Below are positions 1 through 32,653 of a DNA stretch of 32,653 nt, piece after piece. The first letter of the stretch is position 1. Every line of letters starts with the position of its first letter. The DNA is from Saprospiraceae bacterium (GTDB lineage: Bacteria; Bacteroidota; Bacteroidia; Chitinophagales; Saprospiraceae): assembly GCA_004297645.1 (NCBI GenBank), contig SCUG01000462.1, positions 1 through 32,653 of the forward strand, read 5' to 3'. The notes beneath the pieces were generated by a model that saw only the letters and a list, made by a program, of their open reading frames with translations, was not told the DNA's origin and searched no databases. The translations under genes and the position numbers were made by a program.

Positions 1-477
1 TCAAAGCGCCGCCAAATCCAGTTGGATAACATCGAAAAACTGCCCATCCAAATGGTGGAAATCGTGGTCGGTGGTGAGCAAAGTCAAGCCAAGCACGGAG
101 GCAGTGGCAGCAATCCAGAGAGCCTGCCCCGAATTTTCGGGGTCGTTCTTTCCCATGTTTCGGGCGCTTGTTCCGAGTGGCCGCCCTGGCAGGCGACCCT
201 GGCTGAAAGCATCAATTTCGGCGTATCGCTGGATGATGGTTTCCACGTGAATGTCAGTAATGGGAAATTTTTGAACGAATTGAAACAGCCTTGAAATTCT
301 GGCGACGCCCCATTGGCTTTGAATGGCGATGGAGCGAATTTCACCGGCGGTCACGACGGACAACACGGAAGTGTTCGGAGCGGCGAGCGGGGCGTGAAGC
401 GCATCAATTTGGGCAGCCAGCCGCTGGTTTTCCCTGAGATAAAGGAGGAGGATGTTGGTGTCGAGGAGGAAATTCAT
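1..477 (-). CDS. PIN-domain (VapC-like) toxin ribonuclease
   Basis: 158-aa ORF. It has 'LLDTNILL' at the N-terminus, 'AGEIRS', 'KND...LWIAATA' and 'LLTTDHDF', which match the four acidic positions of PIN domains. Its ATG (475-477) overlaps a TGA (474-476) that closes the upstream antitoxin-like frame (ATGA coupling). Confidence 0.85.
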   Translation of the reverse strand: MNFLLDTNILLLYLRENQRLAAQIDALHAPLAAPNTSVLSVVTAGEIRSIAIQSQWGVARISRLFQFVQKFPITDIHVETIIQRYAEIDAFSQGRLPGRPLGTSARNMGKNDPENSGQALWIAATASVLGLTLLTTDHDFHHLDGQFFDVIQLDLAAL

Positions 478-826
478 GCGCTGAGCATCGCCAAAAGTTC
501 TTCAATGGGTTCCTGCACGTTGATTTCTGCAATCAACTTGTCCAATTCTTGCCGGTCAAAACCTTTGAAGTTTTGTTCCGTCAGAATTCTTCAAGCGTCA
601 GGTTCTTGCGCAACGGCCTCATGGCATCGGCAAAAATGGCAATTTCATTGGGCTGTGCAACTGGCTCGACAGGTTTGTTGATACCTTTGGAGGAGGGTTG
701 GCCGTTCCGGGCAGTTTTGCGGGCGGGCTTTTTTTCAGCCGAAATGACTTGCAAGACCTGGAGTCGCTCCAAACTGCGTAGCAGCGGCAGTGCTTCTTCC
801 CTCAATAATTTTACGGTGATGGTCAT
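474..826 (-). pseudogene. Putative antitoxin of the PIN toxin, reading frame broken near 581-590
   Basis: The ORF from ATG 826 stops at TGA 581-583 (...RKNLTLEEF*). A second frame is open from 590 and reads RILTEQNFKGFDRQELDKLIAEINVQEPIEELLAMLSA*, ending at TGA 474-476, which overlaps the toxin start. Joining the two pieces gives one antitoxin of about 117 aa. Confidence 0.55.
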
Positions 827-833
827 TGCTTCT

Positions 834-970
834 AAATTTTCTCAAAAGTACGGGAATTTCGTTGCAGTCGTTTCACAAAATCAACCTGAGGCCGGTGCAA
901 AGCCACCTGGTGCTTCCGCCACCGCATTTTGCAGGCGTATTTTGCCAGTCATTTGGAAGGAAGAAGAAAC
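834..970. repeat. Inter-module repeat, copy R1
   Basis: The core ggtgcttccgccaccgcattttgcaggcgtattttgcc (909-946) matches the R2 core at 35 of 38 positions, counted by eye. The left arm (834-908) also aligns with R2 (aaatttYctcaaaaRtac..gaatttcgtt..acctga). The right arm ggaaggaagaagaaac resembles ggtaggagaaagatgaaac in R2. Confidence 0.8.
843..850 (-). promoter_or_regulatory. Bacteroidota-type -7 box (TACTTTTG) inside R1, facing the antitoxin/PIN operon
   Basis: The reverse complement of caaaagta is TACTTTTG, which fits the TAnnTTTG consensus. It lies 17 nt upstream of ATG 826. Confidence 0.4.
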
Positions 971-1046
971 CGGAAGGCATACGAATTAATCCCAAATCAT
1001 GGCAGCAGACTCCCTTTTCGGTGCAAGGTTCATGGGTGATTATCCG

Positions 1047-1607
1047 TCAAGAAGGTAAAACCAGCATCGCTCCCGTCCAATTACCGGACTCCGGGTCGGG
1101 GTCTTCAAAAAACATGGCTGGCGGCTGATGGGCGAGTGCTTTGGCGATTTTTCTAACCCAAAGCGGGGCAGGGGATTCAGGTTCGGGGATGAAATCGAAT
1201 ACAATATCGGCGTGCATGGGCAGCCCTGCGTCAGCGGAAAAAACGGGGGCATCCGTTCTGAGTTGCCCCTTGTCGTCCAAAGGCGTAAAGGCAACCCGGA
1301 CTTTTGGCAACTCCTCGCCTAAGCTCTGGTCGGCTACTTTGGAGGGAATATCTTCGACATCTCCTGCTTTGATTAATGCCATGCCACAGTAGGCATGAAA
1401 CCCTACGACTAAAGATTTGAAGTGCTTCTTGCAAAAACCGGCGCCGGCGTAAAGAAGACGGAGCACGGAAACGTCATTTCTGCCGGGTGGCGGCTTGAAG
1501 GCATTCTCTTTCAATTGCCCGGCAGATTTCGAGTACATCAAAGGGTGTACGATGCCCCTGGCGAGCACTTCCTGAAAGGTGATAATGGGGGAAACCTCGA
1601 TATTCAT
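1047..1607 (-). CDS. Hypothetical protein, 186 aa (candidate toxin/effector of an unknown family)
   Basis: Long ORF with ordinary amino-acid composition. Its ATG (1605-1607) overlaps the TGA (1604-1606) of the upstream gene by 4 bp. I recognise no family motif. Confidence 0.7.
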   Translation of the reverse strand: MNIEVSPIITFQEVLARGIVHPLMYSKSAGQLKENAFKPPPGRNDVSVLRLLYAGAGFCKKHFKSLVVGFHAYCGMALIKAGDVEDIPSKVADQSLGEELPKVRVAFTPLDDKGQLRTDAPVFSADAGLPMHADIVFDFIPEPESPAPLWVRKIAKALAHQPPAMFFEDPDPESGNWTGAMLVLPS

Positions 1608-2116
1608 TGAGTAGGTGACAAATGGGCGAACAAGTGTTGCAAGGCTTCGAGCAAGTCAGCAGGAAAATCCTTTCCGGCGAGGTCGAGATGCTCATTTTCC
1701 ATTGTTTTCCCGGATGGCAATTGCGCAAAAAAATTAGCCTTGCTTTTGCCGATTTCGACGGTAACGAAGTGACTGTCTCCATGTTCCCAGTCTATCGTAA
1801 CCGTGCTATAAGGGGTGGGGGTTATGTTTTCCGGTTCTAAATGTTCGAGGAAGGATTCGGGCAATAGTCTCAGGAAGTTAAGGCAGGCATCCGCTACTTC
1901 CGGGCTGACAGGAATGGCGCCGTACCCGTCCCAATTGTTTTTTAGGCGAGTGAAGGACTGGATTTTCGTCCGGACGGCGCTCCAACGGTCTTTTCTTTTG
2001 AAAGCCTTTTTTTCCGGGCTGTTGCGATGCAGGAACTCATAGACTTTGGGGAGCCATTTCTCGTCCAATTGGTCAATGAGCCGGTGCAATTCTTCCCGTT
2101 GATAAGATATAGTCAT
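1604..2116 (-). CDS. Hypothetical protein, 170 aa (antitoxin-like N-terminal helix plus an unknown C-terminal domain)
   Basis: The N-terminus REELHRLIDQLDEKWLPKVYEFLH resembles the 'L..LI..LPE..L..V..F' helix of DUF2281-type antitoxins. The C-terminal 'NNWDGYGAIPVSPEVADACLNFLRLLP' domain is uncharacterised. The gene is translationally coupled to 1047-1607. Confidence 0.7.
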   Translation of the reverse strand: MTISYQREELHRLIDQLDEKWLPKVYEFLHRNSPEKKAFKRKDRWSAVRTKIQSFTRLKNNWDGYGAIPVSPEVADACLNFLRLLPESFLEHLEPENITPTPYSTVTIDWEHGDSHFVTVEIGKSKANFFAQLPSGKTMENEHLDLAGKDFPADLLEALQHLFAHLSPTQ

Positions 2117-2184
2117 CGTTCATTCAAGTTTTGAAAACAGCGCTTAAAGATAGCGCCTTCGATTAGTGAATGGTCTTCGCTCAA

Positions 2185-2324
2185 AAATTTCCTCAAAAAT
2201 ACATGAATTTCGTTTCCATTGTTTTTCAGATTTTACCTGAAATGAAACGGGGTATCGTGGCGCTTCCGGCACCGCATCTTGCAGGCGTATTTTGCCGGGC
2301 GGTGGGTAGGAGAAAGATGAAACA
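2185..2324. repeat. Inter-module repeat, copy R2
   Basis: Core ggcgcttccggcaccgcatcttgcaggcgtattttgcc (2259-2296). Both the left and right arms align with R1. Confidence 0.8.
2194..2201 (-). promoter_or_regulatory. -7 box (TATTTTTG) inside R2, facing the 2116-1047 gene pair
   Basis: The reverse complement of caaaaata is TATTTTTG, which fits TAnnTTTG. It occupies the same position in the repeat as the box in R1, 78 nt upstream of ATG 2116. Confidence 0.4.
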
Positions 2325-2349
2325 GCCTCCTCCATTTTCACCTTTTCCA

Positions 2350-2357
2350 TACCTTTG
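2350..2357 (+). promoter_or_regulatory. -7 box (TACCTTTG) upstream of the 4-Cys gene
   Basis: Exact TAnnTTTG match 15 nt upstream of ATG 2372, just to the right of R2. Confidence 0.35.
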
Positions 2358-2371
2358 GAATCAAAAATTCT

Positions 2372-3130
2372 ATGGAAGAAAACGAACACTTCATCGAGGG
2401 CATCTACAACTGGTGCGACCGCTGGTGCGAGCGCTGCAAATACACTGACCGATGCTATAGTTTTCAAATGGACGTGGAAGACGGCTTCGACCCGCTGAAC
2501 CGGGACCTCTCCGGCGAAGAGGTCTGGGCGCACGTCGGCAAGCGCTTTGCCCAGGCGCTCGAAATGCTTCGCAAACACGCCGCCGAACAGGGCATTGACC
2601 TCGACAACCTGCCCGATGTGGAAGAAGAACCGCCCAGCGAAAGGGCTGCCCGGCTGGAGGCGCTCTGCGAAGAAATCCACGAAGAATACATCGAACGCAG
2701 CCACTCGTTTTTCGAAGAAAACAAAACCTATTTTGAGGACAAAGGCCACGAAACCATCAGTTGGGTGCAGATGGGATTGTCTGGCGAAGAGGAGGTGCTG
2801 GCAAAATGGGAAGAGGTGAACGACCAGGCCGAAGTCATTCAGTGGTACACTTATTTTGTCGGGGTGAAAATACGCCGGGCTATAAACGGCCTCGACGACA
2901 TGCACGAAGACCACTGGGGCAGCCCTGAACAAAGCGACGCCAACCGCACGGCCCGCGTCGTCATGCTGGCCATCGAACGGAGCATGGCCGGCTGGCAGGT
3001 GATGCTGCATGCTTTTCCAGAAAAGGAGGACGGCATCATCCAACCCCTGGCACTGCTGGCCAGGTTTCGCCGGATGGTAGTGACGACCTTCCCACGCTGG
3101 GCTGAGGCGGGGCCAGACGTGGTGTGGTAA
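2372..3130 (+). CDS. Hypothetical acidic helical protein with an N-terminal 4-Cys cluster (C-x3-C-x2-C-x5-C)
   Basis: 252-aa ORF with 'NWCDRWCERCKYTDRC' at residues 13-28. The rest is Glu/Asp-rich. The overlapping 299-aa minus-strand ORF has antisense-shadow composition. Confidence 0.75.
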   Translation: MEENEHFIEGIYNWCDRWCERCKYTDRCYSFQMDVEDGFDPLNRDLSGEEVWAHVGKRFAQALEMLRKHAAEQGIDLDNLPDVEEEPPSERAARLEALCEEIHEEYIERSHSFFEENKTYFEDKGHETISWVQMGLSGEEEVLAKWEEVNDQAEVIQWYTYFVGVKIRRAINGLDDMHEDHWGSPEQSDANRTARVVMLAIERSMAGWQVMLHAFPEKEDGIIQPLALLARFRRMVVTTFPRWAEAGPDVVW

Positions 3131-3170
3131 GGCGTTCTACGCCGGGGGTGCTGCCCCTGCGCCTCATCCA

Positions 3171-3292
3171 TTTCCTCCACGAAACGCCCGCCCGCCACCG
3201 CCCCGAAACGGACGGTGCGACCTGGCGGTTTCGGCATCGGATATTGCAGGAGCATTTTGCGGGGCAGTGGAAAGAGAATGAAGCAATAAACC
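3171..3292. repeat. Inter-module repeat, copy R3 (more diverged)
   Basis: The core ggcggtttcggcatcggatattgcaggagcattttgcgg (3224-3262) matches the R2 core at about 32 of 40 positions by eye. The right arm gtggaaagagaatgaagcaataaacc resembles R2 ggtgggtaggagaaagatgaaacagcc. The left arm contains ccgccaccgcccc (3192-3204) and gaaacgg. Confidence 0.65.
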
Positions 3293-3294
3293 AG

Positions 3295-3302
3295 TAGCTT
3301 TG
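3295..3302 (+). promoter_or_regulatory. -7 box (TAGCTTTG) upstream of the antitoxin gene
   Basis: Exact TAnnTTTG match 27 nt upstream of the TTG start at 3329. Confidence 0.35.
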
Positions 3303-3328
3303 TAAATAATCCATCAACCATAACCGCT

Positions 3329-3541
3329 TTGGCACTGAAAGAAGAAGTCCGCAGACTAAGCGCCGTTGAGCGCATCCTTTTCGTGCAGTACATCCTCGAC
3401 ACGCTGCGGGAGGATGCGGGCGAGTTCGAGTTGAGCGAAGAATGGAAGCAGGAACTCGACCGCCGCACCACCTCCTACCTCGATGGCACTGCAAAAACCT
3501 ATGCTTGGCAGGAAGTCCGGGCAAAAGTGCAGCAGCAATGA
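3329..3541 (+). CDS. Addiction-module antitoxin (the small 'putative addiction module component' type that pairs with ParE/RelE)
   Basis: 70 aa. 'LSAVERILFVQYILDTL...ELSEEWKQELDRR' fits the small helical antitoxin pattern. TTG is the only start available, because the frame opens at 3290. The stop overlaps the next ATG (ATGA at 3538-3541). Confidence 0.7.
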   Translation: MALKEEVRRLSAVERILFVQYILDTLREDAGEFELSEEWKQELDRRTTSYLDGTAKTYAWQEVRAKVQQQ

Positions 3542-3711
3542 ACCACACGCTCGTTTTCCACCAAGAAGCGCTGGAGAAAATCCAGGATGCTCACGACTGG
3601 TACGAACTGCAAAGGAAAGGGCTTGGCTTGGAGTTCATGGACGCCATTGGCAAAGTGGTACAGCGCATTTTGTCAAATCCGAACGATAAGACCGACCGCC
3701 ACCTCCCCTAA
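3538..3711 (+). pseudogene. ParE/RelE-family toxin truncated after about 57 aa
   Basis: MNHTLVFHQEALEKIQDAHDWYELQRKGLGLEFMDAIGKVVQRILSNP matches the N-terminal half of ParE-like toxins. The C-terminal beta-sheet/'FPY..Y...H..R' half is missing. The last codons (DRHLP*) lie in the ccgccacctcccc box of repeat copy R4. Confidence 0.6.
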
Positions 3712-3760
3712 ATAATTGGCGCTTCCGCCCACCTGCGCCATTGGAATATTTTCAGGCAGA
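3693..3760. repeat. Inter-module repeat, copy R4 (degenerate)
   Basis: ccgccacctcccc (3696-3708) matches the R3 left-arm box. ggcgcttccgcccacctgcgccattggaatattttcaggc (3718-3757) aligns with the R2 core if gaps are allowed. Confidence 0.5.
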
Positions 3761-3784
3761 AGTTGCAAAAAGTTTTCCCCACTC

Positions 3785-3792
3785 TATATTTG
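3785..3792 (+). promoter_or_regulatory. -7 box (TATATTTG) upstream of the ATP-grasp gene
   Basis: Exact TAnnTTTG match 29 nt upstream of ATG 3821. Confidence 0.35.
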
Positions 3793-3820
3793 CCCCCCGA
3801 TTCTAATATTCAACCTTAAA

Positions 3821-5110
3821 ATGGAAAAAACCACGCGCAAACGGCGCTTTCTTTTTGTCTCCCGATGGGGTGACTTGCTCGACATAGTGAATGCAGTGCA
3901 GGAAGAAGGCAACGATGTAAAAATGTTCATCGAATACAAGCCCTGCTTAGAAGTCGGCGACGGCTTCGTCCCCAAAGTTAGCGAATGGCAAAGCCACATC
4001 GCCTGGGCCGACATCGTTGTGTTCGACTACACGGGCTACGGGAAAATAGCCGAAGAATTGCGGGCCACCGGCAAGCCTGTCTTCGGGGGCAGCGAGTACA
4101 CCGACAAGCTGGAGATAGACCGCAGTTTTGGGCAAGATGAACTGAAAAGGCACAAAATCAACATCCTGAAATACAAGGAATTTCAGACCTTCAGCGAAGC
4201 CATCGCCTATGTGGAAGCACACCCGAACTCCTACGTGCTCAAACCCAGCGGCGAGACGCAAGATTTTAAACAGCTCCTGTTTGTGGGCAAGGAAGACGAT
4301 GGTAGTGACATCGTACGGATGCTAAAGGCTTATGAAAAAAGCTGGGGCAACATGGGTGCCTTTCAACTGCAACGCCGGGTGAGGGGCGTGGAAGTAAGTG
4401 TATCTGCCTATTTCAACGGCAAGGAGTTCATCAAACCCGTCAACATAACTTTCGAGCACAAAAAACTTTTCCCCAAAGAACTCGGCGTCTCCACCGGAGA
4501 AATGGGCACCAGTATGTTTTGGACGGACGACAACCCCATCTTCGACGCCACCCTTGGCCGCATGGAAAAAACCCTCGCCAAAGATGGCTTCACCGGCCAC
4601 ATAGACATCAACTGCATCGTGAATGGAAAGGGCATTTATCCCTTGGAATTTACCTCTCGCTTTGGCTATCCGCAAGTGTACATTCAGCGGGAAGGCATCA
4701 GTGAACCTTTCGGCGACATGCTGTTCAAGCTGGCCACCGGCCAATCGTTCAAGCTAAAAACCAAACCCGGCTTCCAGGTCGGGGTTTACATGGTCGTGCC
4801 GCCTTTCCCTTACAACGACGACAAAACCTTCGAGCTTTTTTCCAAAGATGCCGTCGTCGTTTTCAAAGACAAAAGCATGAAGGGTATCCATCCGGTCCAC
4901 CTCCAGCAGGTAAACGGCGAATGGCTTATCACCGGCGACGCGGGCATGCCTATTCTCGTCGTGGGCACGGGTATCACCATGAAGGAGGCTCAACACCTGG
5001 CTTACAACCGCATCTCCAACGTCTTTATAAACAATTCCTACTACCGCACCGACATCGGCGACCGATGGACGGAGGATTCGGACAGGTTGTGGGCCTGGAA
5101 GTTCCTGTAA
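3821..5110 (+). CDS. ATP-grasp enzyme, PurD-like (paralog of phosphoribosylamine-glycine ligase)
   Basis: The ORF opens at 3716, but the sensible start is MEKTTRKRRFLFV at 3821. ATP-grasp-like core (YVLKPSGE..., GVEVSVSAYFNG, EMGTSMFW) and a PurD C-domain-like end (AYNRISNVFINNSYYRTDIGDRW). It lacks the housekeeping PurD 'GGREHA' N-terminal motif. Confidence 0.8.
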   Translation: MEKTTRKRRFLFVSRWGDLLDIVNAVQEEGNDVKMFIEYKPCLEVGDGFVPKVSEWQSHIAWADIVVFDYTGYGKIAEELRATGKPVFGGSEYTDKLEIDRSFGQDELKRHKINILKYKEFQTFSEAIAYVEAHPNSYVLKPSGETQDFKQLLFVGKEDDGSDIVRMLKAYEKSWGNMGAFQLQRRVRGVEVSVSAYFNGKEFIKPVNITFEHKKLFPKELGVSTGEMGTSMFWTDDNPIFDATLGRMEKTLAKDGFTGHIDINCIVNGKGIYPLEFTSRFGYPQVYIQREGISEPFGDMLFKLATGQSFKLKTKPGFQVGVYMVVPPFPYNDDKTFELFSKDAVVVFKDKSMKGIHPVHLQQVNGEWLITGDAGMPILVVGTGITMKEAQHLAYNRISNVFINNSYYRTDIGDRWTEDSDRLWAWKFL

Positions 5111-5118
5111 AAGGATGA

Positions 5119-5628
5119 ATGATGCCTTTACATTTCAAAGAAATCACCGAAGCCCCCGCCCCATTTTTCAACCTGCTGCCGCCCGACTGGCAGGAGGGCA
5201 TTGTGCCACAATGGCCCATTTATCAATCTACGGCTCGAATTTTCGCTTTGAAAAAAAAAGGAGAAATCCATTGCGGTGGCATCGTCTTTCCCACCGTTTC
5301 TCCCGACACCCAGGCCTACCGGGAAGAGGCACAGGGCTGGTTCGGCCGCGGGTTCCTTTACATCGGGTTCCTTTTTGTGCCGGAAAAGTACCGAGGCAAA
5401 CGCTATGGAACGACGTGGCTGGAGGCGTTGGAAAAGCAATTTCCCGGACAGGCTTTTTGGCTGGCCATTGACGAATACGGCTTGCACAACTTTTATGAAA
5501 AAAACGGCTTCCAACTGGTAAAGCAGGTAACGGGAGAATTTGGCCCCGAATGGATTTTGGAAAGAGCTGCAAATGCCGGCATCACTACCCCGCCTCCCGC
5601 ACCGCCCCCATTTTCAAAGAGACGCTGA
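5119..5628 (+). CDS. GNAT-family N-acetyltransferase with a Pro-rich C-terminal tail
   Basis: Acetyl-CoA motif A-like 'FLFVPEKYRGKRYGTTWLEALE' followed by 'YGLHNFYEKNGFQLV'. It starts 8 nt after the ATP-grasp stop. The tail TTPPPAPPPFSKRR is encoded by sequence resembling the repeat box. Confidence 0.8.
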   Translation: MMPLHFKEITEAPAPFFNLLPPDWQEGIVPQWPIYQSTARIFALKKKGEIHCGGIVFPTVSPDTQAYREEAQGWFGRGFLYIGFLFVPEKYRGKRYGTTWLEALEKQFPGQAFWLAIDEYGLHNFYEKNGFQLVKQVTGEFGPEWILERAANAGITTPPPAPPPFSKRR

Positions 5629-5692
5629 AACGACAAAAACGATAGCGCCGCCATCTTTGAATTGTGCGGGAATAACGCCATATTTGTCACCG
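5590..5692. repeat. Possible fifth, highly degenerate copy of the inter-module repeat (R5)
   Basis: ctcccgcaccgcccccattttcaaagagacgc (5594-5625) resembles cttccgccaccgc-attttgcaggcgtat of the R1 core. gaaacg and catatttgtcaccgg follow. This alignment is weak and made by eye only. Confidence 0.3.
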
Positions 5693-5836
5693 GACATCTA
5701 TTCACTTAGAAAGCTTTCCCATTTCTTCACCTTGTGCCTGTCAATGAACCGGAGTTCGGTTTTCGACCCATTCAACAAGTGTCCCTGACCTGCCCCCGGC
5801 ATTGCCGGTGCATAACCTTACAAAATTCCTCACGCC

Positions 5837-8800
5837 ATGAAAACCCGGTTTACCCTCGTTTTTCTTGCGCTGCTCCTGGCTGCTACTTCCCGTGCTCAAT
5901 TCAACTGGCAACACACCGGCGGCCCTAACGGCGGCTCGCTTTCCCGGATTTATTCCAACGACGAGTACGCCTTTTACCCCGATGAGTATTTTCTATACCG
6001 AACCTCCGACGGTATGCATTGGGAAAAATTGCCCGAAGCGGATATCTGGCCCCTTGCCGCCAACGGAAGCAACTTAGTCGCTCAGGCGTTGGCAAATCAT
6101 TACTCTAATTCGGTCCCTGCCAAACTTATTATCAGCCACGACAACGGCGAAACCTGGACGGAAGGCAACATGCCACCCGGCGGCGAGCATTTTTCAGAAA
6201 TAGTATGGTGCAGTCACGGGATTTACATTCCCAACGGTCAGGAAAATTTCATCTTTCGCTCAGTAGATGAGGGGCAGACGTGGGACTCTATTTTTCCTCC
6301 ATTTCAATATGGCTATGACATCTGGGAGTTTGATGACAGGCTTTATGGTAGTAGTTCATCCGGCATCTGGCGGACGGACACCAACGGGGAGAACTGGACA
6401 TCCCTCACCGTACCGCTCGGTGCGAGCGAATATATCAGGACTATTTTTGCAAACGGCCAGCACATCCTGGTAGGAACGGAATCCAATATATGGCAATCCC
6501 ACGACGATGGACAGACGTGGTCGAACCAGAGCAAGCCCTGGGCAGAAAACTTCACTGCTTTTCAATTGGCGGGCGATAAAGTTTATGTTGCAGGAGGCGG
6601 AGGCAACCTGGCCCGCTCGGATGATTTTGGCGTGACGTGGGAGGCTCTATTTCTTGACGATACCTACCAGTTCAACTTTTATTATACGGCCACAGCAGGT
6701 GGGCAAATCCTTGGTAGTACTTACAACAGAGGCGTTCTGCGGTGGGACGAGGCATCGGGCACGATAGTTCAAGCCAACGAGGGCTTGGGGTCCGGTGCTG
6801 TTTACATTCTTGCAGCAGGTGGCAACCGGGTTTGGGCGGGCGCTGGAAATGGCGTTTTCCAATTCGATTTGTCGCAGGAAAACTGGAGCGCCAATTCACC
6901 TTTGCCAATACCAGAGTACTTTTACGAATCCATCGCTACCCCTGACAACGGCCTTGTTTGCGCCGCCGAATGGCTCACGGACCACTTTTTCCTGTCCACT
7001 GATTTCGGGCAAAGCTGGGACACCATTTACCCATTCACCGAACCCTGGGAGTTCGGCTATATTTCCCGCCTAATGCTTAGTGATGAAGTAATTTTCTTTT
7101 GGAATGGAGAATCTGACTACTCCCTGTGGCGCTCGGATGATTTAGGACAAAGCTGGCAACAGGTTGATGTTCCTTTTTATATTAGCAGTATCATTAAGTT
7201 CAATGGCCTGCTGTTGGGAAATACCAATCAGCAAATCTATTCTTCCTCAGATTTAGGGATGACCTGGGAGGTATTTTCAGATTTTCCCTATGGCAATATA
7301 CTTTCGATGTTCACTTCGGGCGACCGCTTGATGGTAGGAGTTTCAGTGAACATCAATGGGCAGTATCACCAGCGGCTCTATACTTCGACCGATGGCATCA
7401 ACTGGGCCTACGCGCACGATGGGCTGCCGGAGGTGAGTTTGTACATTGACCCTGACTCCGAGTATTCTCTACCCGGTTTCTACTACTATCAGGAAGAATA
7501 TTTCCTTTACACCCCATCCACGGGTTTTTTCGTTTCACAAGATTCCTGCAAGACATGGTTGCCGCTCGAAAATCGGAACGGGTATGCCGTCACTATGACC
7601 GATGGCAAGTTTTACGCAGGCAGTTTCGGAGGCGGGGTTATCAGGGCAGACGTTCCGGTCAATGCCTATGGCGAACTTGCAGAGGGTACGGTGTACCTCG
7701 ACGAAAACAACAATGGCGCGTTCGATGCCGGAGAAAACCCCATTCCGAACGTGAGGGTCAGTGTGGAACAGCCGGGCACATGGTATCCCTTTTATTTTAC
7801 CACCACTGCTGAAGACGGTTCCTGGTCGCTCGGCATCACGCCAGGTTTGCAGGACACCCTGCGCCCTTTGATTCAGTCGCCCCATTTGGAAAGCATCAAT
7901 CCGCCCTGGTACCTGGCAAACATGGGTGGCACAGGCAAAGATTTTGGTATTCATCTAACGCCGGGCATCACTGACCTGTCGGTGGCGGGCGGCTACATTT
8001 TCAGACCCCGGCCGGGCTTCGATTTTCGGATTTATGCCCACTACGCCAACGACGGAACAACGGACCCTGGCGCAGTTGTATCGCTCAAGCTCGACCCGAA
8101 CCTGACCTACTTACAGGCCACTCCTTCGCCAACTGCTGTTTTTGGCGATAGCCTTGTTTGGGACGTTGGCCAACTGCCCGTGCTGAATGGTGGAAATATC
8201 TGGGTCGGGACCAACGTTCCTGCCACTACCCCGCTCGGAACTTTGGTAAAAAGCACCTGGCACATTTCTTCCATCGCTACCGATGCAACGCCCGATAACA
8301 ACCTCTTGGTTTTATGCGATACCGTCGTCGGTTCTTATGACCCCAATGAAAAAAGAGTGCAACCTGCCGAAGGCCTCCGGCCCTCCGAAATTGCCGAAGG
8401 CAAAGACCTGCTCTACACCATCCAGTTTCAAAACACCGGCAACTACCCGGCGGAGCGCGTGCGCATCACCGACATGATCGACACGGCGCTGTACCTGCCG
8501 TCGCTGCGCTTTGTGGCGGCAAGCCACCCCGTCACCTCGTTCCAGCTCAGGCCGGGCGGCCTGCTCGAAGTCGTTTTCGACGGTATTCAACTGCCCGACA
8601 GCACGAGCGATGAAGCTGGGAGCCACGGCTTCGTCACCTTCGCCATTCAGCGGAAAAAGGCATTCGACCCCACTTACCGGGTGCGCAACATGGCGGCCAT
8701 CTATTTTGATTTCAACGAACCGGTTTTTACCAACGAGGTGAGTTTCACCATCAACGATACGCCCGTTTCCGTGCATGAAACGCCGGGGAAAACGGCCACC

Positions 8801-10177: not shown

Positions 10178-13100
10178 TTACATTTTCACGATTCGTTCTC
10201 TCCAGACCCAGCCATTCGGGCCGCCGTTTTTCAGCACCACGAGGTACACGCCCGAAGGCAGCCCGCCGAGGTTCAGCGGCCAGGGGGTTTCCGCTTCGGG
10301 AGGCCTGTGTTGTTGCAACACCTGTTTTCCATCGAACGACCAGAGTTCTGCCGTCCATTCGCCGGGTACCGGCAGGACGACGTACAACTGGCCGGACACA
10401 GGATTCGGGAAAATCTTCGGAGCAGAGAGTTCCTCTATTTCGCCGGCAGGCGTACCCGTGCAATCCACGTCAAACGCAACTGACAAACCCAAATCGAAAC
10501 AGGCATGGCCGGGAGAACTGTATTCGACGGCCCCCAGGTTGATGATGTAGCTGCCGGTTTGCGCGTAGGTATGCATGTACATACCGTCGGCATAAGGGCC
10601 AAAATCCAAATTGCCGTCGCCCCAGTCGATATAAGTAATGGAGTCGCAGGGTGGCAGGCCGCTGACGGTCAATATCGCCTTGCACAGCGAATCCACGATG
10701 GTGATGCTAACAGCGTTTTGCACGTTCTGGACGAACAGTTCATAATCGAGGCAACAACTGTCAACGGGGCATTCATTCTGGAACCAGGCCAGGTTGCAAA
10801 CGCAGGTGTCGCTGCCGCAAATGGTGCTCATGCTCAAAGAGTACCACCCTGCCAGGAACGGCGAGGGCAGCGTGATGAAAATGTTGCCCGGGGAAGTAAT
10901 GCCCGTGATGGAATTGTTAGGCCCGGTGAGTTGCCAATTTATAGGCGCCGCCAGACAGGAGTCTTCCAGACAACTGAAACTGCCGGTAATAATGGCACCA
11001 ACGATCGGTGGGCACTCGAAGTACATCGTGTCGCCGCAATCCACCGGAGTGGCGATGCCAGCATAGTTGAAGTTGAGATTCCAATCGCCGCAATGGCACT
11101 CGCAGTTTAAGGTGATGGTATCCGTCAAAAACTTTTCAAAGCAAATAAGACCGGTGTTCGGATCTCTCTCAATGGCTAAATAGGAAATTACGTAGGTACC
11201 GCTTTGCGAGTACGTGTGCATAATCATGGCACCAACGCCAAACGGCCCATAGTCCGTATTGCCATCTCCCCAATCGACATACTCGAAGGAGTCACATTCG
11301 GGCAAAGTACCAATATTGACGGCCGCCTTGCACAGCGAATCCACGATGGTGATGCTAACAGCGTTTTGCACGTTCTGGACGAAGGCCTCATAATCCTGGC
11401 AGCAGGCCACAGGGCAGAAAAAACAAAGGGTGTCGGTACAAACGAGGTCAGCGCCATCGAACGCATTAGGCCCCGAATACCAGCGGATTACCACACACTG
11501 AGGTACCTGGGAAGCATTGGTAATGTTGGAGAGGCAAAATTGGAGAAGACCGGGATAGTCACCTAAAGGTATAGAGGCATGGGGTGTAGTGTGGATAGTC
11601 AACAAGGTGCCGGCCGGCCCTCCATCTAATAGCAGACCACTGGGTGAAATAGAAGCATTGCTGAACCCAACACCTGGCGTGAGACTTTCCACTTGAATGA
11701 ATTGGATAGGTGCGGCGTGTATGCCGAAATTCATGCTGTAACAACAAGAATCAGAATCCAAAGAGTCCTTCGTCACCCAAAGCGAATCACAAGGGAAAGG
11801 GCAGTAAGTCACGCCGCCAGCCACGTTTAACCCGGTGACTGCTCCGGTGATATCGCTGTACTTTACCATGAGGCAGTTCTGTCCTGCCGCGAAATGCGAC
11901 TGCATGCCATCGGTGATAATCAGCGGAGGGCCGGCAAAACCTCCTGTTGCCGGGTAAGGAGGATAAGTAGGTACTGTGTAAATATTGTTGCTTCCCAGCC
12001 AGACTTCATCTATTACCTCATCAGCGCGGAGCTGTAGTGAAAGATTTGCGTCGGAGAAGCCTGGCGGCAGGTTGAAGCACACCTCATAGGTAAACTGTTG
12101 CGGTGTCCCTGGCAGTTGGCCGTTACACCCTAAGGGGCAGGCTGAAATCCATTGACTATTTGAGAATGGTAAGGCCCAAAGTGGATGGGCAGGTGCAATA
12201 ACATCAGCCGGGCGAGGCGTCGGTATCGTGGTTACAGGGTCGGCTATTACCCACCAGTCGAGGTCAGGCGCATTATCCACGTCCATACCTGGCGTATTTA
12301 TAACCGTCGAATTCTGGTTATCCCATCCCGTGTTGAGCACTATTGTAGCAGTGTCGCAACCGCAATTCACCGTCACCGGCGTGCACATTTGCTTGTACCA
12401 GCAAAAGTCCCCGCTTCCATTTTGCTCATAAACGGTTACGCAAATATTGTAGGTGCCGCTTTGTGCGTAAGTGTGCATCCACATCCCGTTGGCGGGCACG
12501 AGCACTTGCAGCACAGGTGTCCCGTCGCCAAAATCGGGCGGCGTACCAAACCAGTGGCAGGAGTCGAACTGCGGTGCGGTTACCGTCACTTTGCAAGAGT
12601 CGCCTATGGCGACCGTGAAGCCCTGGTTCACCAAGTTGCAAAAGGCATCGAAGTCGGCGCAGCAAGAGTCATGCGAACATTCAGCAGGGGCCAAACACAC
12701 GTCATCCACGGCAATGTAAACCCCTCCAAAAGCGCTATCCGTCCGGGTGATAAAAATCCGGTCAATACCGGCAGCGGGCAAGGCGGATGAATTAAAATTG
12801 AAGCTGATGGTTTGAAAATTTTCGTCGCAGGTACCCGGAATGGCGTAGGTGCCCAGCAGGATGGCTGGCGGCGAAAACAAATTCGGATTGGTTGGAGCCA
12901 ACGCGCCGGGCGTCCCGGTGCTTGCTGCACCCACCGGCACGCCAAAGACGCTGACGCCGGGCGTCCCAAAATAGAAGCCTAAACAGGCCAGCTTTAGGGA
13001 AAGCTGGTAACAACCTGAATTTTGAGCAATGGCCGCGCCCAATTGGTTCATAATCCCTTCACGCCATACCGGCTGGTTGGCTTGAAGCCTGCACCAAAAA

Positions 13101-25182: not shown

Positions 25183-25289
25183 GTATCCCCTCAAAAAATG
25201 CTGGTATTTCGAGCGGCAGGGTTCAAAACCCTGCCGCTCGAAAAAACTGCGTAATTTTGGAAGACTCCCATTAATTTATGAGGGGATAC
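25183..25289. repeat. REP/MITE-like element, copy 1 (11-bp terminal inverted repeats plus an internal 14-17 bp hairpin)
   Basis: gtatcccctca (25183-93) pairs with tgaggggatac (25279-89). The internal hairpin is cgagcggcagggtt caa aaccctgccgctcg (25210-25240). The reverse complement matches 32550-32623 with 3 mismatches in 74 nt, counted by eye. Confidence 0.8.
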
Positions 25290-32568: not shown

Positions 32569-32653
32569 TGGGAGTTTTCCAAAATTACGCAGTCTTTTCG
32601 AGCGGCAGGGTTTTGAACCCTGCGTTTCAGATACGAAAACGCAGGGTTCAAAA
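32550..32653. repeat. REP/MITE-like element, copy 2 (opposite orientation, runs off the window end)
   Basis: gtattccctcataaattaatgggagttttccaaaattacgcagtcttttcgagcggcagggttttgaaccctgc matches the reverse complement of 25216-25289. It then continues as overlapping hairpins gcagggtt/aaccctgc (32605-23), ctgcgttt/aaacgcag (32620-44) and gcagggtt again (32641-). Confidence 0.8.

Follow-up and report, generated by a model that had tools for sequence, protein, structure and literature searches.

Two small minus-strand genes, here named A and B, lie near the left end of a 32,653-nucleotide (nt) stretch of DNA from a Saprospiraceae bacterium (contig SCUG01000462.1, positions 1–32,653, assembly GCA_004297645.1; the whole stretch is referred to as the window), and they raise the question of what kind of system they belong to and what that system does. 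The original prediction, made from the sequence alone, took them for a pair in a cassette of its own and a candidate new toxin-antitoxin (TA) or defence module. Comparison with their relatives shows a different architecture: there is a sporadic module of three genes, TIGR04255-A-B, which begins with a gene of the TIGR04255 family, here named T, and A-B is its reduced form. As to what the module does, we tentatively favour a TA-like or abortive-infection/defence role. Relative loci and contigs carry the labels L001–L051, and the two genes are laid out as follows.

1604..2116, minus strand: gene A, 170 amino acids (aa), ATG start; N-terminal helical extension and conserved core
1047..1607, minus strand: gene B, 186 aa, ATG start; predicted enzymatic component
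1604..1607, minus strand: ATGA overlap of the A stop codon (TGA) and the B start codon (ATG)

A coupled gene pair and its three-gene relatives

Positions 1604–1607 read TCAT on the plus strand, that is, ATGA on the coding strand, so that the TGA stop codon of A overlaps the ATG of B. The open reading frames (ORFs) and the sequence bear out the coupled pair of 170 and 186 aa that had been proposed, and every peptide string quoted with that proposal was found in the translations. Adjacent, co-oriented and co-transcribed small genes, often with overlapping stop and start codons, are a trait of type II TA systems, and A-B displays it. The overlapping pair recurs, with the identical 4-nt A/B overlap, in the close homologues L010 (80–84% identity) and L011 (56–66%). 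Close homologues number 12 for B and seven for A among 5.8 billion clustered proteins, and a local hmmsearch of the window recovered B at E 1.7e-58 and A at E 6e-99. Against L010 the ratio of nonsynonymous to synonymous substitution (dN/dS, Nei-Gojobori) is 0.22 in A and 0.16 in B, and against L011 it is 0.12–0.14 in A; both genes are under purifying selection. The existence of homologues combined with these low ratios indicates that A and B are real genes, which form a translationally coupled two-gene operon.

The wider architecture emerged from loci found through B, of which 15 are distinct (L001/5, L002-4, L006–L012, L014–L018 and L051). A local hmmsearch places an A-like gene directly upstream of B in all 15 of these independent loci, so that the A-first gene order noted in the window is strictly conserved. 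Directly before A, in 11 of the 15, stands T, a gene encoding 240–283 aa (~270 aa) that often overlaps A by 4 nt, and 4-nt overlaps are kept across the B loci. The A proteins of the module measure ~160 aa, with an NWDGYGA/PYGT core, and the B proteins ~180 aa. Wherever it was scored, T reached 32.7–82.7 bits against the TIGR04255 cut-off of 30; its assignment in loci without a TIGR04255 scan comes from a local profile of the same T sequences. A genome scan with a 12-sequence B alignment returned five loci, the 96-sequence alignment being too diverse for scanning. NCBIfam describes TIGR04255 as 'sporadically distributed' and of unknown function, T has no relative in Pfam, PADLOC or the PDB, a search of 8.3 million full texts returned no mention of TIGR04255, and hhalign found no mutual homology among T, A and B. 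The window has the later part of this arrangement, with an A-core gene immediately ahead of a gene of the B family; whereas T-containing relatives carry a TIGR04255 gene above the curated cut-off before A-B, no T-like ORF occurs anywhere in it.

A search started from A found A-core genes on 23 viral contigs in IMG/VR. Eight of these have a B-like gene downstream of the A core and eight an above-cut-off TIGR04255 gene upstream, the latter including a third subfamily (L023, L032) in which the downstream gene of ~155 aa is only marginally B-like. The other viral-contig A-like genes are small phage ORFs without B, beside integrase and DUF6378, MazG-like or DHH genes. Among the IMG/VR contigs, seven (L037–L041, L027 and L035) encode core-only A-like proteins of 108–125 aa with neither B nor T, and the genes adjoining them encode a tyrosine integrase and DUF6378, a MazG-like PRA-PH or a DHH phosphoesterase; in these short proteins phages may possess the A fold in stand-alone form.

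The window belongs to a clade that has lost T and comprises, besides the window itself, L010, L011, L050, L051 and L049, the last with A alone. No T-like ORF was found in the window, L010, L011, L049 or L050, and other enzymes are encoded upstream of A in L051. Every A protein of this clade starts with an N-terminal helix of the pattern ELHxxIDxLDE, whereas the A N-termini at T-containing loci are unrelated and variable, which indicates that the gain of the helical segment coincides with the loss of T. L006 is another locus without T, yet its A protein lacks the helix. The clade also includes two loci with a missing or damaged B: the gene after A in L049 (212–1032) is a DUF6155 gene and no B is present, and a frameshift, possibly an assembly error, splits B in L050 (6001–7010). 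B without A was never seen among the loci found.

Proteins A and B

A search with the 12-sequence profile against 1.84 billion representative proteins places B in a family of 581 representative clusters at E<=1e-3 (349 at E<=1e-10), and the best 150 matches listed all consist of one domain and none exceeds 225 aa, most being ~150–210 aa. In the 96-sequence alignment S47, R50 and H132 never vary; E13 and R17 each occur in 95 sequences and P109 and P130 each in 94, followed by P39 (93), G75 (91), C59 (89) and D134 (85). This pattern of conservation indicates an active site. The AlphaFold2 model of B is confident, with six strands and three helices (predicted local distance difference test, pLDDT, 87; predicted template modelling score, pTM, 0.84), and conservation and model together make B a probable enzyme of an uncharacterised fold and family.

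The original prediction had recognised no toxin family in B, and the searches agree: B has no relative in Pfam, NCBIfam, PADLOC or PHROGs, a PDB sequence-profile search with the family gave no match, and Foldseek of the model against the PDB gave none either (best E 0.41, template modelling (TM) score <=0.2). A toxin from a known superfamily, another trait of type II TA systems, is thus not what these searches find in B. Pfam run on the 96 family members yielded no credible domain, with stray DUF6062 matches at E 0.0035 at best.

Several active-site types were considered for B. An assignment to the ADP-ribosyltransferase (ART) or RES-like enzymes, suggested on sequence inspection alone by an Arg in strand 1, a Ser in strand 2 and H-x-D in strand 5, was dropped, as no such structure is among the best 50 of 91 Foldseek matches and Pfam gave no RES or ART match. 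A Ser-His-Asp triad, a Cys-His-Asp triad and an HxD metal site were likewise considered by eye, with no tool supporting any of them.

Protein A consists of a conserved alpha+beta core (~residues 50–165) with the motifs NWDGYGA, PTPYxT and EIG, preceded by a clade-specific extension (residues 1 to ~45) with two low-confidence helices that carries the ELHxxIDxLDE motif. The AlphaFold2 model reaches a pLDDT of 78 overall and 80–92 in the core. This division reverses the earlier description of A as a DUF2281-like antitoxin helix followed by an extra domain of ~120 aa: the supposed extra domain is the conserved core, and the N-terminal helix is the addition. Nor did the DUF2281 assignment find support: hmmscan against Pfam at E<=1 returned BET (E 0.067) as its sole match and DUF2281 (PF10047) was absent. 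No NCBIfam domain was found in A, a profile of the N-terminal segment retrieved nothing relevant from the PDB, and a PDB sequence-profile search with the whole protein gave no match. Foldseek of the model against the PDB returned nothing significant, HicB-type TA chains appearing no better than E ~0.5. Against viral structures in BFVD, the A model resembles a 122-aa protein of Tenacibaculum phage PTm1 (E 4.4e-7, TM 0.73) and A0A345BPV0 (E 1.3e-5), both small uncharacterised phage proteins.

The A core also matches, weakly, the C-terminus of the PADLOC model PDC-M32A (E 2.5e-4 for the window protein), and such matches are seen in four divergent A proteins in all, at E 3e-5 to 3e-4. PDC-M32 is a two-gene cassette, one of 145 untested 'phage defence candidates' picked for having homologues inside BREX, DISARM or type I restriction-modification systems (bioRxiv 10.1101/2024.01.29.577857), and in the literature it appears solely as an untested cassette of two families. 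The likeness covers profile positions 257–372 of 375, that is, the C-terminal ~115 residues, whereas the N-terminal 250 residues of the 375-aa PDC-M32A are unmatched by A, and B and T match no PADLOC model including PDC-M32B, so that A-B cannot be counted as a two-component member. At most, then, the profile match points to a shared domain of common descent and not to the same system. This weak domain match is the sole link to catalogued systems for the families of A, B and T, all of which are uncharacterised.

The conserved C-terminal tail of B (residues 174–179, window 1047–1100), with an NWTG motif in which W177 is present in 84 of 96 sequences, resembles the NWDGYG of A (residues 60–67); hhalign pairs the two motifs, without significance (E 0.23).

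Mobility and possible functions of the module

A-B moves between genomic contexts as a unit. Homology at the DNA level between the window and L010 and L011 stops at the B stop codon, and upstream it ends approximately at the ATG in L011 and runs ~110 nt into the leader, the left part of repeat R2 described below, in L010. Genes for a proline racemase and a DAO oxidase flank L010, a 1470-aa SNF2-family helicase is encoded directly downstream in L011, and L051 lies among lipase, nucleoside hydrolase and amidohydrolase genes. Because these three contexts all differ, and because L044 has the modules that flank A-B in the window without A-B between them, we conclude that the module is mobile, in accordance with the proposal that it occupies a cassette of its own.

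Contexts of the three-gene form are equally varied. L017 adjoins AbiH, HNH, AAA_15, PDDEXK_3 and DUF4143 genes; L015 adjoins Mu Gam, an S24 repressor and IS1595, which are prophage and insertion-sequence remnants; L002 lies in a heavy-metal island beside a PDDEXK_4 gene; and L014 is found among the housekeeping genes for RecR, an E1 dehydrogenase and PheS. A PADLOC scan of 133 neighbour genes has in its top list two SNF2-type genes that match DpdE/ZorD/DrmD models, at E values down to 4e-199. The named hosts are mostly Bacteroidota (Hymenobacter, Imperialibacter, Membranihabitans, Sediminibacterium and Cyclobacteriaceae), and one host metagenome-assembled genome carries a Hyphomicrobiales label. 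A tblastn search of 50,697 GenBank phage records and 72,556 PLSDB plasmids with the window B and the L025 B-like protein gave no match. Overall, A-B is a sporadic, horizontally shuffled accessory module. TA and defence genes typically show such a distribution, which sets the module apart from conserved housekeeping genes.

We posit, at somewhat less than an even chance, that A-B is a TA-like or abortive-infection/defence module in which B is an enzymatic effector and A its obligate partner. The effector role would fall to B because of its invariant polar set (E13, R17, S47, R50 and H132, plus C59 and D134) and its compact alpha/beta fold. A, co-translated in stoichiometric amounts, would bind B and restrain or direct it; were A lost or sequestered, for example on phage infection or loss of the element, B would be free to act on a substrate essential to the cell. 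The N-terminal helices of A, in the clade without T, might have taken over a regulatory or sensing role of T. A comparable substitution is seen in PezA, which combines a helix-turn-helix with an epsilon-like domain and replaces the omega of epsilon/zeta systems. The likeness to these TA systems would be one of architecture alone. As in epsilon/zeta, T-A-B comprises small co-translated genes with the putative effector last, distributed sporadically and linked to mobile elements, and as in PezA-PezT, the two-gene form lacks the first gene and has an extra N-terminal segment on the middle protein. There is no sequence or structural relationship between T-A-B and those systems, however: B is not a zeta kinase, and T, at ~270 aa and of the TIGR04255 family, is not a small repressor like omega.

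Consistent with a TA-like role, an A-like gene directly precedes B at all 15 loci and also on the B-containing viral contigs; the A core has its weak match to the defence candidate PDC-M32A; orphan A (L049) and frameshifted B (L050) occur and orphan B does not, which is the asymmetry expected of a TA pair; and the window copy sits in an island with PIN and Unstab_antitox modules. Several points weigh on the other side. Homology gave no sign that B is toxic or that A neutralises it, and no known antitoxin or DNA-binding domain was detected in A by Pfam, NCBIfam or the N-terminal PDB profile. The canonical form has three genes, and the effector could be T rather than B. The surroundings of many loci are ordinary metabolic or housekeeping genes (e.g., L014 and L051), and the PADLOC top list for the 133 neighbours contains just two clear defence-type helicases, which leaves any association with defence islands anecdotal. 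PDC-M32 is itself an untested candidate, and B matches no PADLOC model. Finally, the asymmetry argument consists of two loci, one of them possibly an assembly error.

A bolder version of this proposal, which we regard as unlikely, holds that TIGR04255-A-B, with its three components, is an undescribed system for anti-phage defence or abortive infection. B would then be an effector of a new fold with a Ser/Arg/His(+Glu/Arg) active site, and A an adaptor or inhibitor that phages have copied as decoys; in the window the helical module of A would have replaced T, leaving a self-contained TA-like cassette in a repeat-delimited array.

The TA-like or defence reading has to be weighed against others, among which a non-toxic accessory enzyme system appears possible although rather unlikely. 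B, with T where present, would perform a dispensable task, for instance the modification or salvage of some small molecule, nucleic acid or protein, with A as structural subunit or specificity factor, and the module would have spread through occasional usefulness and not through addiction or defence. Three tightly coupled genes with kept overlaps suit a multi-subunit enzyme, no toxin or antitoxin family was detected in A or B by Pfam, NCBIfam or PADLOC, B has been lost or broken with no obvious replacement in L049 and L050, and L014, L051 and L010 lie among metabolic or housekeeping genes. Those metabolic neighbours are, however, not conserved across loci; the distribution is extremely sporadic, with a different context in every relative; viral contigs carry the module, and it also adjoins Abi, HNH or SNF2 genes; and the window copy lies in a TA-rich, repeat-delimited cassette island.

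A further possibility is that the module serves phages or other mobile elements (e.g., superinfection exclusion, anti-defence or maintenance). The A fold would then belong primarily to a phage protein, such as a decoy or an inhibitor, from which A-B derives in domesticated or prophage-borne form. Many of the 23 IMG/VR contigs with A-core genes lack B and have the integrase/DUF6378, MazG-like or DHH neighbours described above, the A model matches the small phage proteins of PTm1 and A0A345BPV0, L015 adjoins Mu Gam, an S24 repressor and IS1595, and PDC-M32 has been reported in Sinorhizobium prophages (PMC12429752). Yet B was absent from the GenBank phages and plasmids searched by tblastn, most B loci are chromosomal with no adjoining phage genes, and IMG/VR contigs include host DNA flanking prophages; we consider this explanation improbable. 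Least probable of all, with a very small chance of being correct, is a type II TA pair of the classical kind, in which a DUF2281-family protein that has gained a domain serves as antitoxin. Its antitoxin-first order, ATGA overlap and TA neighbourhood all fit, and by eye the N-terminal pattern L..LIDQLDE..L..V.EFL resembles the starts of short antitoxins; against it, DUF2281 is missing from the Pfam matches at E<=1, the N-terminal profile has no relevant PDB match, only the clade without T has the helix, the conserved partner of B is the 'added' core domain, and ancestrally the module has three genes.

If the TA or defence reading is true, the module represents a new effector family and a new architecture. 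With B as the toxin or defence effector, that family would comprise ~580 clusters at 50% identity, mostly from Bacteroidota and with no relative among solved structures, and the module would give a first functional handle on TIGR04255, which is widely annotated by NCBI. The two-gene and three-gene forms would constitute a natural experiment on the simplification of multi-component conflict systems, and the small phage proteins with the fold of A could be counter-defence factors. An ordinary accessory enzyme would be of modest interest, as one of many conserved hypothetical operons.

The repeat-delimited island around A-B

In the window, A-B lies in an island whose small gene modules are parted by a repeat. 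The features are listed here.

819..967: repeat R1, downstream of B; promoter and start of the PIN-antitoxin operon; core at 917-945
2170..2317: repeat R2; 2170-2240 is the A-B leader/promoter region, core at 2267-2295 in the right part
within ~3150-3290 (~3223-3282): partial repeat R3, the third copy
1-477, minus strand: PIN domain gene (E 8e-8)
474-826, minus strand: PIN antitoxin gene, split by a frameshift near 581-590
2372-3130, plus strand: 252-aa gene, divergent from A-B, with a Cys-rich N-terminus CDRWCERCKYTDRC
3329-3541, plus strand: Unstab_antitox gene (E 6e-12)
3538-3711, plus strand: 57-aa ORF overlapping the Unstab_antitox stop, with the look of a ParE/RelE N-terminal half; no Pfam match
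2194..2201, minus strand: candidate A-B promoter TATTTTTG, a TAnnTTTG match 78 nt upstream of the A ATG
843-850 (minus), 2194-2201 (minus), 2350-2357 (plus) and 3295-3302 (plus): TAnnTTTG boxes of the four island operons

The position of A-B between two repeat copies is as originally described, R1 and R2 being defined by the direct-repeat families D1 and D4. The claim that TA modules lie on both sides holds in that a PIN module is found to the left and an Unstab_antitox module to the right; the right-hand module is not adjacent, however, as the 252-aa gene and R3 lie between. The 57-aa ORF behind Unstab_antitox is probably a truncated toxin. One frame of the split PIN antitoxin reads MTITVKLL…LTLEEF* and the other continues …ILTEQNFKGFDRQELDKLIAEINVQEPIEELLAMLSA*; the L044 counterpart (2937–3290) is an intact protein of 117 aa. 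The 252-aa gene is highly conserved in L044 (228–986) and could be assigned to no family, a weak DUF3549 match (E 9.5e-4) being its only one; it has no TIGR04255 match and is not a homologue of T.

The repeat is ~60–150 nt long, with the core CGNCANCGNATNTTGCAGGNGNATTTTGC, and its 20-nt core ATNTTGCAGGNGNATTTTGC is present in exactly three copies in the window against 0.03 expected. The core also occurs on seven metagenome contigs (L042–L048), with two copies each on L043 and L044 that bracket cassettes; in L043 the two copies bracket a single ORF of 272 aa. L044, from a close relative of the window organism, has the 252-aa gene behind a repeat copy and the PIN gene with its intact antitoxin, and thus shares two modules with the window in another order, with other genes between them and without A-B. 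This arrangement indicates that the island consists of shuffled modules parted by the repeat, A-B being one of them. A hairpin can be drawn in the repeat core (CTTCC/GGAAG and CAC/GTG, with TTTC/GAAA in R3), with thin covariation support, and Rfam gave no match in window positions 1–6000. The repeat may be a recombination site such as attC, or merely a shared promoter or leader sequence.

Like integron TA cassette arrays, the island has a short conserved repeat that parts small modules, several of them of TA type, and a related contig reorders the modules and lacks A-B. Unlike integron arrays, its modules are of mixed orientation, and its repeat is in part promoter or leader and has no Rfam match. 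No attC consensus or integrase turned up here, in an analysis that included no search aimed at either.

The -7 promoter consensus of Bacteroidota is TAnnTTTG, and boxes of this form lie 15–78 nt upstream of all four island operon starts. We infer from its position that TATTTTTG is the candidate operon promoter of A-B; the ~110-nt leader around it is also present in L010. Window-wide, TAnnTTTG occurs 22 times against 16.7 expected, which is not clearly higher. A scan for sigma-70 promoters and terminators was uninformative, as expected for a genome of the Bacteroidota type.

Elsewhere in the window there is an 81-nt direct-repeat pair of 91% identity (10676–10756 and 11324–11404, 648 nt apart), and a 28-nt direct-repeat pair with a short palindrome (TTTCGAGCGGCAGGGTT…AACCCTGC) is found at 25207–25234 and 32596–32623.

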